DNA of 64,000 bases from sequence record PP925826.1; one strand, given 5' to 3'. How positions within the stretch are numbered: the stretch's first letter is position 1; each line of letters starts with the position of its first letter. Positions 16,101 to 26,226 of the stretch are shown one piece after another. Origin of the DNA: Escherichia phage Antha. The notes beneath the pieces are model-generated. The model did no database searches, was not told the origin of the DNA, and saw nothing but the letters and a program-made list of their open reading frames with translations. Made by a program: the position numbers and the translations under genes.

Positions 16101-16484
16101 TTACTTATAAGCTGGATCGTTTGTTATATCAATCCAATGAGCTAAATTAATTTTATTTTTTGCTTTCATTTTCTCGATCAAACGTTCTGCTAATGTCTCG
16201 GAACGGATATAAACATAATCGCTAAAATCTTGCCCCGTTTCTTCGTCGATCATTTCTCTATATTCAACCTTGCCGATAAACGCATGATTCAGCGCATAAG
16301 TTTTACCCGTGTACCAGTTGTGTAAATGGATCTCGCATTTATAATCGTCGCTATAACCTTCGGTTGTTCTAACTTCAACCAGATCGCCTTTAAACACGGA
16401 TAAGCACCACATAGGATCACGATCTACAGCGCCGTTAAAATCTTTACCGTTTACAGTAGCCGCCAGGTTGATGATATTGCTCAT
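16101..16484 (-). CDS. hypothetical protein
   Basis: start at ATG preceded by GAGG; promoter TTGACA-N17-TATTAT lies in the longer ORF-track extension. Confidence 0.5.
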   Translation of the reverse strand: MSNIINLAATVNGKDFNGAVDRDPMWCLSVFKGDLVEVRTTEGYSDDYKCEIHLHNWYTGKTYALNHAFIGKVEYREMIDEETGQDFSDYVYIRSETLAERLIEKMKAKNKINLAHWIDITNDPAYK

Positions 16485-16902
16485 GGTGATTCCTCGTTTA
16501 CCGTTTAAAATGATTTGCCCTACGTGATAAATAATAGTGTAAGCGTGATCCGGTGTCAATAGGTAGAATTGTAAAGATTTGATAGTTTATACCTTTGATG
16601 TTTTGTTGTTTAATAGGTATTAGCTATTAATATATAGCGGGATCTTCCGGTGATTATCTTCCCCTGTCCCCAGGTGCCGCCCGTTCCATAATAATAATCA
16701 AAAGCAGGGTAAAAGGCAAGATAAAAAGCAAATTATTTCCTATGTGCTTTAAACGCTCTAAATAGCTTTATAACAGCTTTTTCATCCTGGCAAGGTGATT
16801 AGTCATTACTACCTTGTTTAAGCGGTTATAATCGGTTTTAGGCTGTTTTACGCCACCTCTTACGTTTATTCTTTACGTGTTACTTCCATCGTGAAAAAAG
16901 AA

Positions 16903-16930
16903 TACAAAAAAGGGCGCTTAGTGCGCCCCT
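16903..16930 (-). terminator. intrinsic terminator
   Basis: hairpin gggcgcttagtgcgccc flanked by A/T runs. Confidence 0.55.
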
Positions 16931-16945
16931 TTCTTTTACCGTGTA

Positions 16946-17335
16946 TTAATATTCGTTATAATACATCGCTAACTTTTCATCAAAAGCCGATTGACGATCC
17001 GCATACTCCCAGAATATTTCCTGATCCTGTTGTTCGTCATCATCCATCATATTAAATTGCGCAACCTCCTGGTAAGTGATCGCCATATTATAACGATAGG
17101 TGATCTCTTCTGCGATGTTTTCCGGTAAAGATGATTCTACACTGTCTAACAGCATATTTAACATCATTTCAGCCGCTTTTTCATCATTATCAAAGCAGTA
17201 AGCAGACCATGCCGCATGATGTTTATTTTTCATCTTTGCAATCAAGCCATTGACTAAAAAAGGCGCTACGTTGTTAACGATACCCTGTAAAGATTGGAAT
17301 TTTTCAACGTTAGAAACAGAAACCAGGTTGCGCAT
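16946..17335 (-). CDS. hypothetical protein
   Basis: ORF; start at internal ATG downstream of promoter-hairpin unit. Confidence 0.45.
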   Translation of the reverse strand: MRNLVSVSNVEKFQSLQGIVNNVAPFLVNGLIAKMKNKHHAAWSAYCFDNDEKAAEMMLNMLLDSVESSLPENIAEEITYRYNMAITYQEVAQFNMMDDDEQQDQEIFWEYADRQSAFDEKLAMYYNEY

Positions 17336-17358
17336 AGTATTTACCTTTTTGATTACCT

Positions 17359-17417
17359 GGCGGGAAACCATTTCCCGCCTACGTGGTAAATAGTACCATA
17401 TTGGGGATCGGTGTCAA
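17359..17417 (-). promoter_or_regulatory. early promoter + 5' leader hairpin cassette
   Basis: minus strand TTGACA-N17-TACTAT then ggcgggaaatggtttcccgcc hairpin before RBS. Confidence 0.6.
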
Positions 17418-17423
17418 TACTTT

Positions 17424-17810
17424 TTATTCAATATAAATCAAATTATCTTCACCAATGTAAGCATGCACCGATGGCATTAATTTAGCTGCATTTGTTAGGC
17501 GGTTGGCGGTGTTAGTAGTGTATATTTCAGGGCGATCCCAAAAGCCTACGCCGTGACCGTTACGGGTAAAATGTAAATCATTCCCGATCTGGTTTGCTGT
17601 AGCGCCGTCGCTCATTGCCTCAGAGATAGCAGCATCATTGGCATCACAATAAGCCGCTACGTCATGAATGATCCTCTGATGGGCTTGATCTGAAAAATCA
17701 TAATCGTCTAAGTTATCAATAAAATAGCCTTCATGATCCCTGGCTGATTCAGCAAAAATAAAGGCTTCTTTATAACCGTTGATGATTTCAATAATGATTT
17801 CAGTTTTCAT
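17424..17810 (-). CDS. hypothetical protein
   Basis: 128-aa ORF. Confidence 0.5.
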   Translation of the reverse strand: MKTEIIIEIINGYKEAFIFAESARDHEGYFIDNLDDYDFSDQAHQRIIHDVAAYCDANDAAISEAMSDGATANQIGNDLHFTRNGHGVGFWDRPEIYTTNTANRLTNAAKLMPSVHAYIGEDNLIYIE

Positions 17811-18040
17811 GCTGTACGCTCGACAATAATAATGGTTTGCGGTATCTCATTTTCTACTACTAACAAGGCTTTTTTCTGTGTGATAGATATTTTAACACGT
17901 TGTAAAGTAGCGGTGAAATCTTTCATTTCGTCACGTGGTGTTTTAGTGCAATGCCAGATTTCAGGTTTACCTATTTGCAAGCCGCGTAAAAATTCTGTTT
18001 TACCTGTCTTATTCGTGATCATTTGATTCACCTTATCCAA
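17807..18040 (-). CDS. hypothetical protein
   Basis: 77-aa ORF. Confidence 0.4.
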   Translation of the reverse strand: MDKVNQMITNKTGKTEFLRGLQIGKPEIWHCTKTPRDEMKDFTATLQRVKISITQKKALLVVENEIPQTIIIVERTA

Positions 18041-18155
18041 TACCGTGGGAAGATAGGATCATGTTAGCCATAGTTGCAACCGCTCCAACCGATAACGCCA
18101 GGCCCACTACTACAACCGTGAAAATTTTCTCTAACATGATTTTACCCTCATTAGT

Positions 18156-18218
18156 GGGCGTTGCCTTATTGCCCCGCCCTACGTGGTACACTTTACCAGA
18201 TAACCGCATATTGTCAAA
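18156..18218 (-). promoter_or_regulatory. early promoter + leader hairpin cassette
   Basis: TTGACA-N17-TAAAGT-gtaccacgtag + GC hairpin. Confidence 0.5.
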
Positions 18219-24296: not shown

Positions 24297-24557
24297 TTAG
24301 TTCGCCTCTTCTGTTAGTAGTTTACATACCTTAAACATGCTTGCCGCGTCTTTTGACGGTAGCCAGCCTATGCGATACACTCCAGGGCCTGGATTAGTTA
24401 TATCCGTTAATTGAGCGTTACGATGATTAAAAATAGTGTAACCGCCGCCAGCACGGGGATAAACATTATCTTTAAACCTGATAGCGTATCTCGCCAGGTC
24501 GAACGTTGTAGCATGTTCAAAAGCGATCACATTATCAAAAACTTTTAGAAAAAACAA
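24297..24557 (-). CDS. hypothetical protein
   Basis: 86-aa ORF. Confidence 0.45.
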   Translation of the reverse strand: MFFLKVFDNVIAFEHATTFDLARYAIRFKDNVYPRAGGGYTIFNHRNAQLTDITNPGPGVYRIGWLPSKDAASMFKVCKLLTEEAN

Positions 24558-24725
24558 GATTATCCTCCCCAGCGTTTAAAGCCCGTTGCACGGTTATTTT
24601 TTAACTCTCGTTTTAGTCTCTTGCAACGGTTTACAAGTGCAAACCGTGCCGGAGTCGTAACAGTAGCGCCGTTTTTGGTGTGAATACTCATTACATATTG
24701 TTTCATAAAGTTTTATCCTATGTAA

Positions 24726-24778
24726 GCGGGAATAGTTCCCGCTTTAAGATAGCTTATCAGGTTTTCGTGCAATGTCAA
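24726..24778 (-). promoter_or_regulatory. early promoter + leader hairpin cassette
   Basis: TTGACA-N17-TAAGCT + gcgggaactattcccgc. Confidence 0.55.
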
Positions 24779-24784
24779 CCGTTT

Positions 24785-25147
24785 TTATTCGTAAATTTTA
24801 CCGCTTTCTACCCATACCATAACACGGCGCATGTTATCCCATGCATCTTGTCGCAGATTTAAGGCATGCAATTCTTCCGTGGTGCTCATGCTTGGTACGG
24901 GCTTGCTGTATGTTACAAAGAGATCGCCAGCATATTCATAAGCCAGGGTAAGATCACATTGAATCATCTTTTTAATCATAGCATCAAGCATCATATTAGC
25001 GGCATGTTGATCACGTTTCAGCGGTAACGTTGCGATCTGTGTGCGATAGCTTTCGATCCGTGCATCCACTGCACCACGCGAAAGGTTTTTCACGTCATCG
25101 CGGAAAGATACCAGATTAAACATGATAGTATTGATTTGCTTGCTCAT
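24785..25147 (-). CDS. hypothetical protein
   Basis: 120-aa ORF. Confidence 0.5.
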   Translation of the reverse strand: MSKQINTIMFNLVSFRDDVKNLSRGAVDARIESYRTQIATLPLKRDQHAANMMLDAMIKKMIQCDLTLAYEYAGDLFVTYSKPVPSMSTTEELHALNLRQDAWDNMRRVMVWVESGKIYE

Positions 25148-25169
25148 TGCATTACCCTTTCTTTGATTT

Positions 25170-25230
25170 GGCGGGAAACCATTTCCCCGCCTTATGTGGT
25201 ATATATTAACAAATTATTTTTCAGTGTCAA
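25170..25230 (-). promoter_or_regulatory. early promoter + leader hairpin cassette
   Basis: TTGACA..TATATA-ccacataa + ggcggggaaatggtttcccgcc. Confidence 0.55.
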
Positions 25231-25233
25231 GCC

Positions 25234-25506
25234 TTAAAGCAAAAACGCTACATCTTGCGCTTTTAGTGTAGTGTCGATCATTTTCGGGCTTTTATAATCC
25301 ACAAATCGCGCGGTTTTTTCAATAGCGAAACCGAGATAATCTTGTTTATTGAAATTACATTCTTTTTTAAACGTTTCCCGTGCCACTGTGATCGCTGCGT
25401 CCAGGGATAAACGCCCATCAATATTGATGTTAGCGAAAGATCCGCCACCGCGCATAGGTTTACCAGTGATGCCAGCTACGATCATTGATGCGCTATATGA
25501 TGCCAT
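25234..25506 (-). CDS. hypothetical protein
   Basis: 90-aa ORF. Confidence 0.45.
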   Translation of the reverse strand: MASYSASMIVAGITGKPMRGGGSFANINIDGRLSLDAAITVARETFKKECNFNKQDYLGFAIEKTARFVDYKSPKMIDTTLKAQDVAFLL

Positions 25507-25528
25507 GATTATTTCTCTCTTCTGTTAT

Positions 25529-25586
25529 GAGCGGCACTATTGCCGCCCTATGTGATAAACTTTACCAGATTAAAAAACGTTGTCAA
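25529..25586 (-). promoter_or_regulatory. early promoter + leader hairpin cassette
   Basis: TTGACA-N17-TAAAGT-ttatcacatag + gggcggcaatagtgccgctc. Confidence 0.6.
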
Positions 25587-26226
25587 GAATATTTTTTAGA
25601 AAATAACAACCGCCACTACAATCCAAAATGGAACGGCTAGAATGATAGCGTTAATCGTTCCAACCGTCAAGCTGTTTTCTTTCTTGATCATCGTTATCAA
25701 CCTTTTATAAGTAATGTTATTGTGACGGTGGATTGTGGAGATCCTCACCTTTGCCCGTCCTGCATTGCACCCGCCTATTGTTTATTGTCGTTGTGCCTTG
25801 CCCCCCTCGACAAGATGAATACTACGCTACCAGGTGAGGAACGTCAACCATTTTTTAATCTTTTTTTCATTTCTTTTTTGCTTGCTATCTATAAAGGAAA
25901 CGGCTATTATCTTTCTACCGCGCCAACCAGGGCGCACATCAAAGAAAGGGCGATACCATGACAAATACTCCTTTACATCTCATGCACTCATTGGGCTGGC
26001 AAGGTGGCACGGTGCACCAGGTAGCAAGCGCAACGGGCTTAAAGGTTGAAACCGTTCTCAACCTGGGCGATCATAAGGTGGAAGAAATAGATCATTTTGA
26101 TACGTTCGCAAATGGTTATCTATGGGCTTGCAGTGGCGGCGGGGAAAGCAAGATCCCACCAGGGGCGCGGGGCGACATGTATTTTTGGTTAGGTGTCCTA
26201 TCCTGGCAAGAAAACAAAAAATAATC

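Follow-up and report, generated by a model that had tools for sequence, protein, structure and literature searches.

The stretch considered here comprises 64,000 nucleotides of Escherichia phage Antha (sequence record PP925826.1), and this whole stretch is referred to below as the window. On its minus strand lies an array of small genes in which a unit of about 80 nt, made up of a near-consensus promoter, a GC-rich leader hairpin and a ribosome site (Shine-Dalgarno, SD), is repeated ahead of successive genes. The window belongs to a phi92-like coliphage of the genus Justusliebigvirus (Stephanstirmvirinae), and a 9.5-kb segment of it is 96-97% identical to vB_Eco_PATM (hereafter PATM), ESCO8, EC_OE_11, alia and phi92. 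The array is roughly the equivalent of phi92 gp226-gp248, is co-oriented, and occupies the last 9-10 kb of unique sequence ahead of the right terminal repeat. With a probability somewhat better than even, the unit can be read as an early-expression module in which a 5'-terminal hairpin shields or insulates the mRNA and in which the repeats offer a substrate for recombination. An original prediction had placed the array at 16101-25590; the array is there but starts slightly further upstream, with a first promoter at 25847. Its features, followed from 5' to 3' on the minus strand, are these:

16067-25852, minus strand: whole array, with about 28 small genes, about 20 promoters, 14 leader hairpins and three canonical terminators; it ends about 1 kb short of the terminal repeat.
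25691-25852, minus strand: first promoter, TTGACG-17-TAGTAT at 25847, with a 128-nt leader to an open reading frame (ORF) of 31 aa and no GCGG hairpin.
25507-25586, minus strand: unit 1, TTGACA-16-TAAAGT (TG-extended), CACATAG, hairpin 25529-25548 GGGCGGCAATAGTGCCGCTC, SD, ATG at 25506.
25148-25230, minus strand: unit 2, TTGACA-16-TAATAT, hairpin 25170-25191 GGCGGGGAAATGGTTTCCCGCC, ATG at 25147.
24707-24778, minus strand: unit 3, TTGACA-16-TAAGCT, hairpin 24724-24744 AAGCGGGAACTATTCCCGCTT; three genes (24706-23741).
23662-23737, minus strand: decayed unit, a promoter and a CACATAGAGCGGGGCAACGCCTC remnant without an ORF; the next promoter follows immediately.
23597-23661, minus strand: hairpin-less consensus promoter TTGACA-16-TATAAT for gene 23596-23417, which is absent from muut and phi92.
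23322-23397, minus strand: promoter TTGACA-17-CATAAT with a weak GGGAATACTCC remnant only; the orthologous gene of ZCKP1 has a full standard unit.
22868-22949, minus strand: unit 4, TTGACA-16-TATAAT, hairpin 22889-22912 GAGAGCGGGAATAGTTCCCGCCTC, ATG at 22867.
22537-22618, minus strand: unit 5, TTGACA-16-TATAGT (TG-extended), hairpin 22559-22579 GGCGGGAAATGGTTTCCCGCC, ATG at 22536.
22222-22300, minus strand: unit 6, TTGACA-16-TAAAAT, hairpin 22240-22264 (core GGGCGGCAATAGTGCCGCTC), ATG at 22221.
21916-21999, minus strand: unit 7, weaker promoter TTGCAA-16-TAAACT, hairpin 21938-21961 AGGCGGTGGAATAGCCCACCGCCT, ATG at 21915.
21659-21737, minus strand: unit 8, TTGACA-17-TAAAGT, hairpin 21679-21699 GGCGGGAAATGGTTTCCCGCC, ATG at 21658; two genes.
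21118-21142, no strand assigned: canonical two-way intrinsic terminator within the array, AAAAGGGCGC-loop-GCGCCCTTTT.
19756-20903, minus strand: sub-block with three hairpin-less promoters (20903, 20438, 19826); small membrane or secreted proteins.
19350-19431, minus strand: unit 9, TTGACA-17-TATATT, hairpin 19368-19393 (GCGGGGAAATGGTTTCCCCGC), ATG at 19349.
18982-19063, minus strand: unit 10, TTGACA-17-TAAAGT, hairpin 19002-19024 GGGCGGGAAATGGTTTCCCGCTC, ATG at 18981.
18764-18806, minus strand: promoterless hairpin and SD module GGCGGGGGAGTATTCCCCGCC, -18 to -19 kcal/mol, stem 18779-18806, between the stop of gene 18981-18811 and gene 18763-18494.
18414-18492, minus strand: unit 11, TTGACA-16-TAGAAT, hairpin 18435-18454 GGGCGGCAATAGTGCCGCTC, ATG at 18413.
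18138-18217, minus strand: unit 12, TTGACA-16-TAAAGT (TG-extended), hairpin 18156-18179 GGGCGGGGCAATAAGGCAACGCCC with an internal loop, ATG at 18137; three genes.
17336-17417, minus strand: unit 13, TTGACA-16-TACTAT (TG-extended), hairpin 17359-17379 GGCGGGAAATGGTTTCCCGCC, ATG at 17335.
16906-16934, no strand assigned: canonical terminator (16912-16928), GGGCGC-loop-GCGCCC followed by a T-run.
16485-16559, minus strand: decayed unit, TTGACA-17-TATTAT and CACGTAGGGC, hairpin lost, ahead of the Gp30.8-like gene 16484-16101.
16067-16085, minus strand: array-closing terminator.
48807-48883, plus strand: isolated opposite-strand unit, TTGACT-18-TAGTAT, ACATAG, hairpin GCGGAGGATTGTCCTCCGC at 48847-48865, AAAGAGGAG; it drives the TerC-family gene 48884-49861.

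The array of promoters and leader hairpins is confirmed and statistically secure. The pattern TTGACA-N16-18-TAnnnT-N8-14-GCGG is matched 13 times in the window, always on the minus strand between 17375 and 25586, where shuffled sequence would give 0.01 matches, and the commonest stem, the 21-mer GGCGGGAAATGGTTTCCCGCC, recurs at five loci with up to three mismatches (none expected). A consensus scan with a threshold of 10 matching positions in 12 places about 19 promoters on the minus strand between 16.5 and 25.7 kb, and two on the plus strand; the 5' flank of the minus-strand promoters is A-rich (AAAA(N4)TTGACA). A covariance model was seeded on eight copies of equal length and, with filters off, scored along the entire window at each position; it picks up 14 hairpins on the minus strand (17350-25558) and a further one on the plus strand (48835-48873). 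These counts are preferred to that of a strict promoter-plus-hairpin scan (10 of 19 in the window), an undercount owing to the choice of -10 hexamer. Altogether the array holds 13 complete units, one promoterless module of hairpin and SD, two decayed units (23737, 16559), five hairpin-less promoters (23661, 23397, 20903, 20438, 19826) and the first promoter with its long leader.

The original prediction had spoken of at least 14 cassettes of promoter and hairpin, filling almost every intergenic gap and each driving one small gene. Thirteen such cassettes are complete, but the fourteenth hairpin (18779-18806) has no promoter. The assignment of one gene to each cassette is only roughly true, because several units, for example those at 24778, 21737 and 18217, serve two or three genes.

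The order and spacing of parts within the unit are fixed. The stop codon of the previous gene lies in an A-rich stretch and is followed by TTGACA, 16-17 nt, TAnAnT (often preceded by TG), about 5 nt and the box C-R-T-A-G; then come a 7-10 bp stem opening with (G)GCGG, an unstructured, A-rich spacer of 8-10 nt, the short purine-rich SD AAAGAG(A/G), 7-9 nt and the ATG. Across ten loci from related phages, 89 of 165 strong promoters have a hairpin of -7 kcal/mol or lower downstream, and in 81 of these 89 the stem starts 9-11 nt past the -10 element; most of the 13 units share this distance, and in unit 3 it is just 6 nt. Loops are 3-7 nt long. Between the 3' end of the stem and the AUG there are 15-23 nt, which puts the stem end approximately where ribosome footprints place the 5' edge of a bound 30S subunit. 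Among 67 distinct copies, position 7 after the -10 element is C in 57 and position 8 a purine in 62, in keeping with the usual start-site step from a pyrimidine at -1 to a purine at +1. Judged by this pattern, transcription most likely starts at the purine 8 nt past the -10 element, within the CRTAG box, so that the predicted transcript would begin R-U-A-G and then enter the stem, leaving 3-4 unpaired nucleotides at its 5' end.

That the hairpin is under selection as RNA is held with high confidence. All 15 leaders of the window fold with one 5'-proximal hairpin (-14 to -19 kcal/mol, z-scores -2.4 to -5.5) and with the SD and AUG unpaired, and the 14 array hairpins have energies of -12 to -19 kcal/mol. 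For covariation, the model was run on eight sources and gave 101 matches, or 69 distinct sequences; MAFFT alignments of the leaders left the 3' arms out of register and were unfit for pair counts, and the covariance-model alignment was used instead. Standard pairs occupy 95.3% of cells, changes on both sides are found in five of the ten stem pairs, and compensatory cells number 40 against 11.8 ± 2.7 in shuffles, with none of 500 shuffles as high. The covariation score is 0.205, compared with 0.105 in shuffles and at most 0.077 when partners are slid, and RNAalifold independently predicts the identical helix. The claim that compensatory changes preserve the pairing is thereby upheld.

Two further observations are independent of the covariance-model alignment. 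Orthologous genes in other genera have different stems at the corresponding position: gene 18981, at 100% amino-acid identity, has GGGCGGGAAATGGTTTCCCGCTC in the window and GAGCGGCGGAATGGTCCACCGCTC in ESCO13; gene 19349, at 94.7% identity, has a GGGGAAA-type stem in the window and a GGCA-type stem in ESCO13; and the leaders of gene 22867 orthologues differ in the loop alone. In addition, non-Watson-Crick cells are G.U in 33 cases and A.C in four, a bias that points to folding of the sense strand as RNA and counts against a cruciform or an operator in duplex DNA.

As had been argued from their missing T-runs, the hairpins are not intrinsic terminators. None of the 14 sense-strand array stems is followed by a T-run, their 3' flank is A-rich, and a terminator scan flags just one stem, and that on the antisense strand (21675-21703). 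The region's actual terminators (21118-21142, 16912-16928 and 16067-16085) differ in having an A-run, a stem and a T-run, the same form that sets true terminators apart in alia. Furthermore, the transcript of each unit must cross its own stem, and the most stable stem (18779-18806) lies between two ORFs of which the distal one is conserved and promoterless; the sequence thus argues against the stem being an efficient terminator of any kind. This promoterless arrangement is kept in Justusliebigvirus and Vequintavirus, and Phapecoctavirus has a counterpart after the same upstream gene, the stems themselves being different.

Several identities were rejected besides that of an intrinsic terminator. 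Sites for RNase III require stems longer than the 7-10 bp present here; CRISPR-like or REP-like repeats would call for a spacing and for host copies that are not observed; and an operator in duplex DNA is contradicted by the variable spacing together with the G.U bias. A search of Rfam 15 gave no match at gathering score and four sub-threshold matches, none of them on a hairpin. A sub-threshold match to RT-17 RNA at 23596-23692 on the minus strand (28.3 bits, E 0.054; gathering score 40.4) overlaps the hairpin-less promoter and leader of gene 23596 and is probably due to chance. In existing records, some leader hairpins of PATM (TERM_013, 014, 016) and ASO2A are labelled as terminators, which is probably misannotation by terminator-prediction software.

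Genes are shuffled at the units, a conclusion also held with high confidence. Nearly every break in collinearity with PATM, ESCO8, muut, phi92 and alia falls at a unit, and comparison with these relatives bears out the suggestion that genes come and go at cassette boundaries, with gain, loss and replacement all represented. Relative to the window, phi92 is without 532 nt (two genes), the promoter and CACATAG of unit 19063 being joined to the stem of unit 18492 by a crossover in TAGGGCGG. Muut is without 288 nt, with the crossover in AGTAAA of two -10 regions, and without 1054 nt, with the crossover in GGTTGAC of two -35 regions, while both muut and phi92 are without 269 nt between two ATGGCTA start regions. 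The decayed unit at 16559 is an insertion hot spot, where ESCO8, muut and phi92 have an additional gene or two. In other genera, orthologues at 93-100% amino-acid identity are preceded by other hairpin classes or an entirely different unit; one such whole-unit swap concerns gene 23321, with a weak remnant in the window and a full standard unit in ZCKP1. The junctions lie inside units, and their scatter over shared tracts of 6-12 nt fits general short-homology recombination rather than a site-specific enzyme.

An array-like segment also occurs in the record of Enterococcus phage heks (MT119359.1, a 39.7-kb siphovirus), where positions 1 to about 1010 are 93-98% identical to window positions 25878-25798 and 25549-24609 (two unit genes) and carry a unit-junction deletion (GGGGGCAA joined to TAGTGCCGC). 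The laboratory and wastewater series behind this record also yielded muut, alia and inny. The segment is most likely a chimeric assembly, real transfer being the alternative.

A 48-nt core of the unit is found in 128 phage records, among them Justusliebigvirus and Phapecoctavirus, with many copies each, and some Vequintavirinae (several copies in NHEP1, a few in SSBI34). The hairpin is present in two subfamilies, Stephanstirmvirinae and Vequintavirinae. At the same position, Vequintavirinae stems differ in sequence (GGGCGAC..GTCGCCC in SSBI34, GGGGCAA..TTGCCCC in NHEP1). None of 5,426 complete E. coli genomes contains a match to the core, and the sole IMG/VR match to an exact 25-mer is one phi92-sized contig; the unit is therefore not a host repeat and is not widespread beyond this phage group. 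Within the complete genome of alia (148 kb), units of the GCGG type are confined to this cluster and a single isolated copy. In the window, the isolated plus-strand unit has a different stem (GCGGAGGA..TCCTCCGC) and serves an integral membrane protein of the TerC family in a block that is otherwise free of units; it appears that this accessory gene either came together with an expression unit or acquired one of its own.

In the Certrevirus KaOmega, the promoters and a CATAG start box are both present, but the leader, CATAGACAAACGAAA, is hairpin-less. A second conserved class of leader, without a hairpin, occurs in Vequintavirinae, in which TTGACG/T-N16-18-TATAAT is followed by (G)GCATAGACAAACGAAA (KaOmega 3749-9256; SSBI34 7515, 10206, 12403, 13969 and 14751). 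It resembles the promoter-early stem-loop leader ACACACATACCGAAACGAAA-AGGAG of phage RB49, and this likeness could stem either from convergence of A/C-rich leaders or from exchange of regulatory units between unrelated phage families.

The products of the array say little by homology: all ten proteins tested match only PHROGs of unknown function, one of them with DUF7249, and the last gene is Gp30.8-like (Phage_30_8). In the phi92 record, the ribosome sites of array genes are annotated as weak ('GGA/GAG/AGG') and those elsewhere as AGGAG. The 343-bp terminal repeat of phi92 maps once in the window, at about 14680-15022, so the window spans the physical genome end and, in a concatemer, the array continues on the same strand into the operon-type block gp001-gp036. 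Between the repeat and the array lies an AT-rich non-coding stretch of about 1 kb (15023-16066, GC 0.31), and about 400 bp between 14062 and 14460 are missing from phi92. At the other end, a divergent small gene (25958-26224, plus strand), a homologue of ESCO13 gp167, has its own consensus promoter at 26227 (plus strand) and is followed by non-coding sequence with G-rich imperfect hairpins (26225-27000; hairpins 26271-26302). The region 25958-27000 may be a divergent control region of the early block.

Taken as an early-expression module, the unit would work as follows. Host sigma-70 RNA polymerase would read each self-contained unit from its CRTAG box onwards, and the initial 25 nt of the transcript would fold immediately. 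Both RppH and RNase E require a 5' end that is single-stranded, and the known stabilisation by 5' structures is explained in this way (PMC3997798); the paired 5' end of a unit transcript may accordingly restrict attack by RppH and by 5'-end-dependent RNase E. The stem would also prevent base-pairing between upstream sequence and the ribosome site, which is open and A-rich, and once a ribosome is bound little naked leader would remain. By isolating the ribosome site in this manner, the stem could ensure that any small ORF placed behind a unit is strongly and predictably expressed. The promoterless copy could supply the same protective 5' end once the AU-rich region around the stop codon is cleaved. 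Finally, about 20 repeats of a unit of some 80 nt in one orientation would allow short-homology recombination to delete, insert and swap genes and pairings of unit and gene. The parts of this proposal differ in strength. The promoters and their early role are assigned with high confidence, and expression early in infection is what the sequence would predict; that the hairpin acts as a stabiliser or insulator has roughly even odds.

Several points weigh against this proposal. The alignment behind the covariation counts was itself fitted to the model, common descent or swapping links many of the copies, and part of the signal reflects exchange of pre-existing hairpin classes rather than independent compensatory mutations. 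Breakpoint enrichment alone is weak evidence, since viable indels must end between genes and intergenic DNA here is almost all unit. With 3-4, possibly 5-6, 5'-terminal nucleotides left unpaired, RppH may still act and protection would perhaps be partial. The five hairpin-less promoters of the array and the hairpin-less Certrevirus leaders indicate that the stem is dispensable, and a literature search found no transcription-start or RNA-seq data for the phi92-like group. Lastly, four GCGG/CCGC base pairs are invariant in the 69 distinct copies (Stephanstirmvirinae), and an apical AAU(A/G)G recurs across stems of different sequence; together these exceed a purely structural need and could indicate a specific reader.

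Such a reader is the main rival. In this explanation the hairpin, with its GCGG/CCGC pairs, AAU(A/G)G and CRTAG, is a binding or cleavage target for a protein, of the phage or of the host, that switches the early set jointly, whether a translational or decay regulator, a processing endonuclease or an elongation modifier of the boxB/put type. It is unlikely, at something like one chance in five, but it draws on more than the invariant pairs and the recurrent apical motif: a tag common to about 14 transcripts would suit a regulon-wide switch, and the G.U bias marks the hairpin as read in RNA. Its difficulties are that distant relatives such as SSBI34 and NHEP1 keep the position of the hairpin with other sequences, that the loop varies in length, and that gene conversion among copies can give invariance; no candidate protein was found among neighbouring proteins, all of those tested being of unknown function, and no Rfam family applies. 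A bolder and more doubtful version regards the hairpin as more than a passive 5' structure, namely as a shared address tag for a dedicated phage factor, be it an RNA-binding switch or nuclease that would control all the accessory early genes jointly or a recombinase acting on the folded strand. Were the recombinase version true, the array would be an active integron-type gene-capture system in a virulent phage.

An attenuator has a slightly smaller chance still, and is improbable. It would be like the promoter-early stem-loops (PeSLs), the early promoter and stem-loop units of T4-type phages, with the stem dampening transcription from the upstream gene and each gene expressed from its own promoter alone. 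The composite of promoter and GC stem-loop in a variable block rich in ORFans speaks for it, as do the terminator labels of the PATM and ASO2A annotators, and an RB49 PeSL stem, which terminates upstream transcription, cut lacZ expression about as much as rrnB T1 (PMC2839356). Here, however, the stem lies downstream of its own promoter, so that termination would kill the unit's own transcript, whereas the RB49 stem is outside its own transcript. The flanks lack the T-run, the most stable copy sits inside a two-gene transcript with a conserved, promoterless distal ORF, and canonical terminators are used where termination is wanted.

An element acting at the level of DNA is given little credence, be it the operator of a dimeric repressor or a recombination site formed by a cruciform or single-strand hairpin, as in attC. 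A perfect palindrome just past the start site would suit a roadblock, indel junctions fall in or beside the palindrome, and the authors of the PeSL work speculated on a DNA-binding recombination protein. Yet variable arm spacing and stem length fit poorly with a rigid dimer on duplex DNA, the tolerance of G.U but not of A.C is strand-specific, and crossovers are spread over the -35, the -10, the leader and the start codon, as in general short-homology recombination. The least probable reading, already disfavoured, is a functionless hairpin hitch-hiking in a promoter unit spread and homogenised by recombination: units are indeed swapped wholesale between genes and some promoters of conserved genes work without a stem, but pairing survives two-sided changes and different stem classes, orthologues may differ in the loop only, the position relative to the -10 and AUG is fixed, and conservation of the hairpin extends to two subfamilies and to a promoterless setting.

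The unit has practical as well as evolutionary implications. With it, the concept that regulatory cassettes drive gene shuffling reaches beyond T4-type phages to unrelated large coliphages (phi92-like, phAPEC8-like and some rV5-like), with the same evolutionary role and another internal logic, in that the stem is in the transcript instead of the promoter. Several phages of these groups are used or proposed for therapy, and since units predict the sites at which isolates differ in gene content, they help in comparing therapeutic phages. The annotation of stems now called terminators in database records can be corrected, and the unit is a natural standard part consisting of a strong promoter, a 5' hairpin, a spacer and a ribosome site.

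Among known systems, arrays of sigma-70-like promoters have been reported in the presumed early region of rV5 (PMC3606486) and of Certrevirus CB7, CR3, CR8 and CR9 (PMC7344957). These are alike in their near-consensus host-type promoters, A-rich upstream element and short hypothetical ORFs, with homologous genes and genome position, but the reports describe the promoter alone and mention neither a leader hairpin nor recombination of units. The 5' stabiliser stem-loops of E. coli ompA and papA (Emory, Bouvet and Belasco 1992, as cited in PMC3997798) likewise combine a stable hairpin a few nucleotides from the 5' end, here from the predicted start, with an accessible ribosome site. They differ in being single, gene-specific leaders with measured effects on half-life, whereas the phage module is repeated, mobile and known from sequence; moreover, the 3-4 unpaired 5' nucleotides predicted for it are at the limit of what is thought protective. 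Integron attC cassettes resemble the array as a series of small genes, each with a folding imperfect palindrome, whose content varies cassette by cassette. Integron cassettes, unlike the units, are promoterless, and the integrase acts site-specifically on a folded single DNA strand, whereas junctions in the array fall at various points across the unit, the array is not linked to any dedicated recombinase and the fold is read on RNA.

The closest likeness, already proposed in the original prediction, is to the PeSLs, which are enriched in hyperplastic regions and whose recombination has been proposed to delete, insert and swap ORFans (PMC2839356, PMC4122927); their defining traits also include excised mini-circles between neighbouring units. 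PeSLs of RB49/phi1, PST/T4 and nt-1/KVP40 share with the units a sigma-70-like early promoter, a GC stem-loop and an SD repeated in one orientation, a hyperplastic block of small ORFans, decayed half-copies, and indel or replacement junctions inside units. They differ in stem sequence (GGGGATC.. in RB49, GGCGG.. here), in phage lineage (Straboviridae as against Stephanstirmvirinae and Vequintavirinae) and in the position of the stem, which in PeSLs lies inside or ahead of the promoter, mostly in the -35/-10 interval or across the -10. The same scan applied to the RB49 hyperplastic region finds 7 of 13 strong promoters with the stem GGGGATC..GATCCCC spanning -24 to -6 as counted from the end of the -10 element, that is, within the -35/-10 spacer, where it terminates incoming transcripts and stays out of the unit's own RNA; in the window the stem lies 9-11 nt past the -10 element, at the 5' end of its own mRNA. 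The analogy is thus partly supported, fitting the genome dynamics and the variable small-ORFan block but not the job of the stem. In the literature covered on phi92, rV5 and phAPEC8-type phages, with the phi92 genome paper outside that coverage, no earlier description of the leader hairpin was found. The leader-hairpin unit of this phage group is PeSL-like, with a transcribed hairpin in place of the in-promoter terminator.

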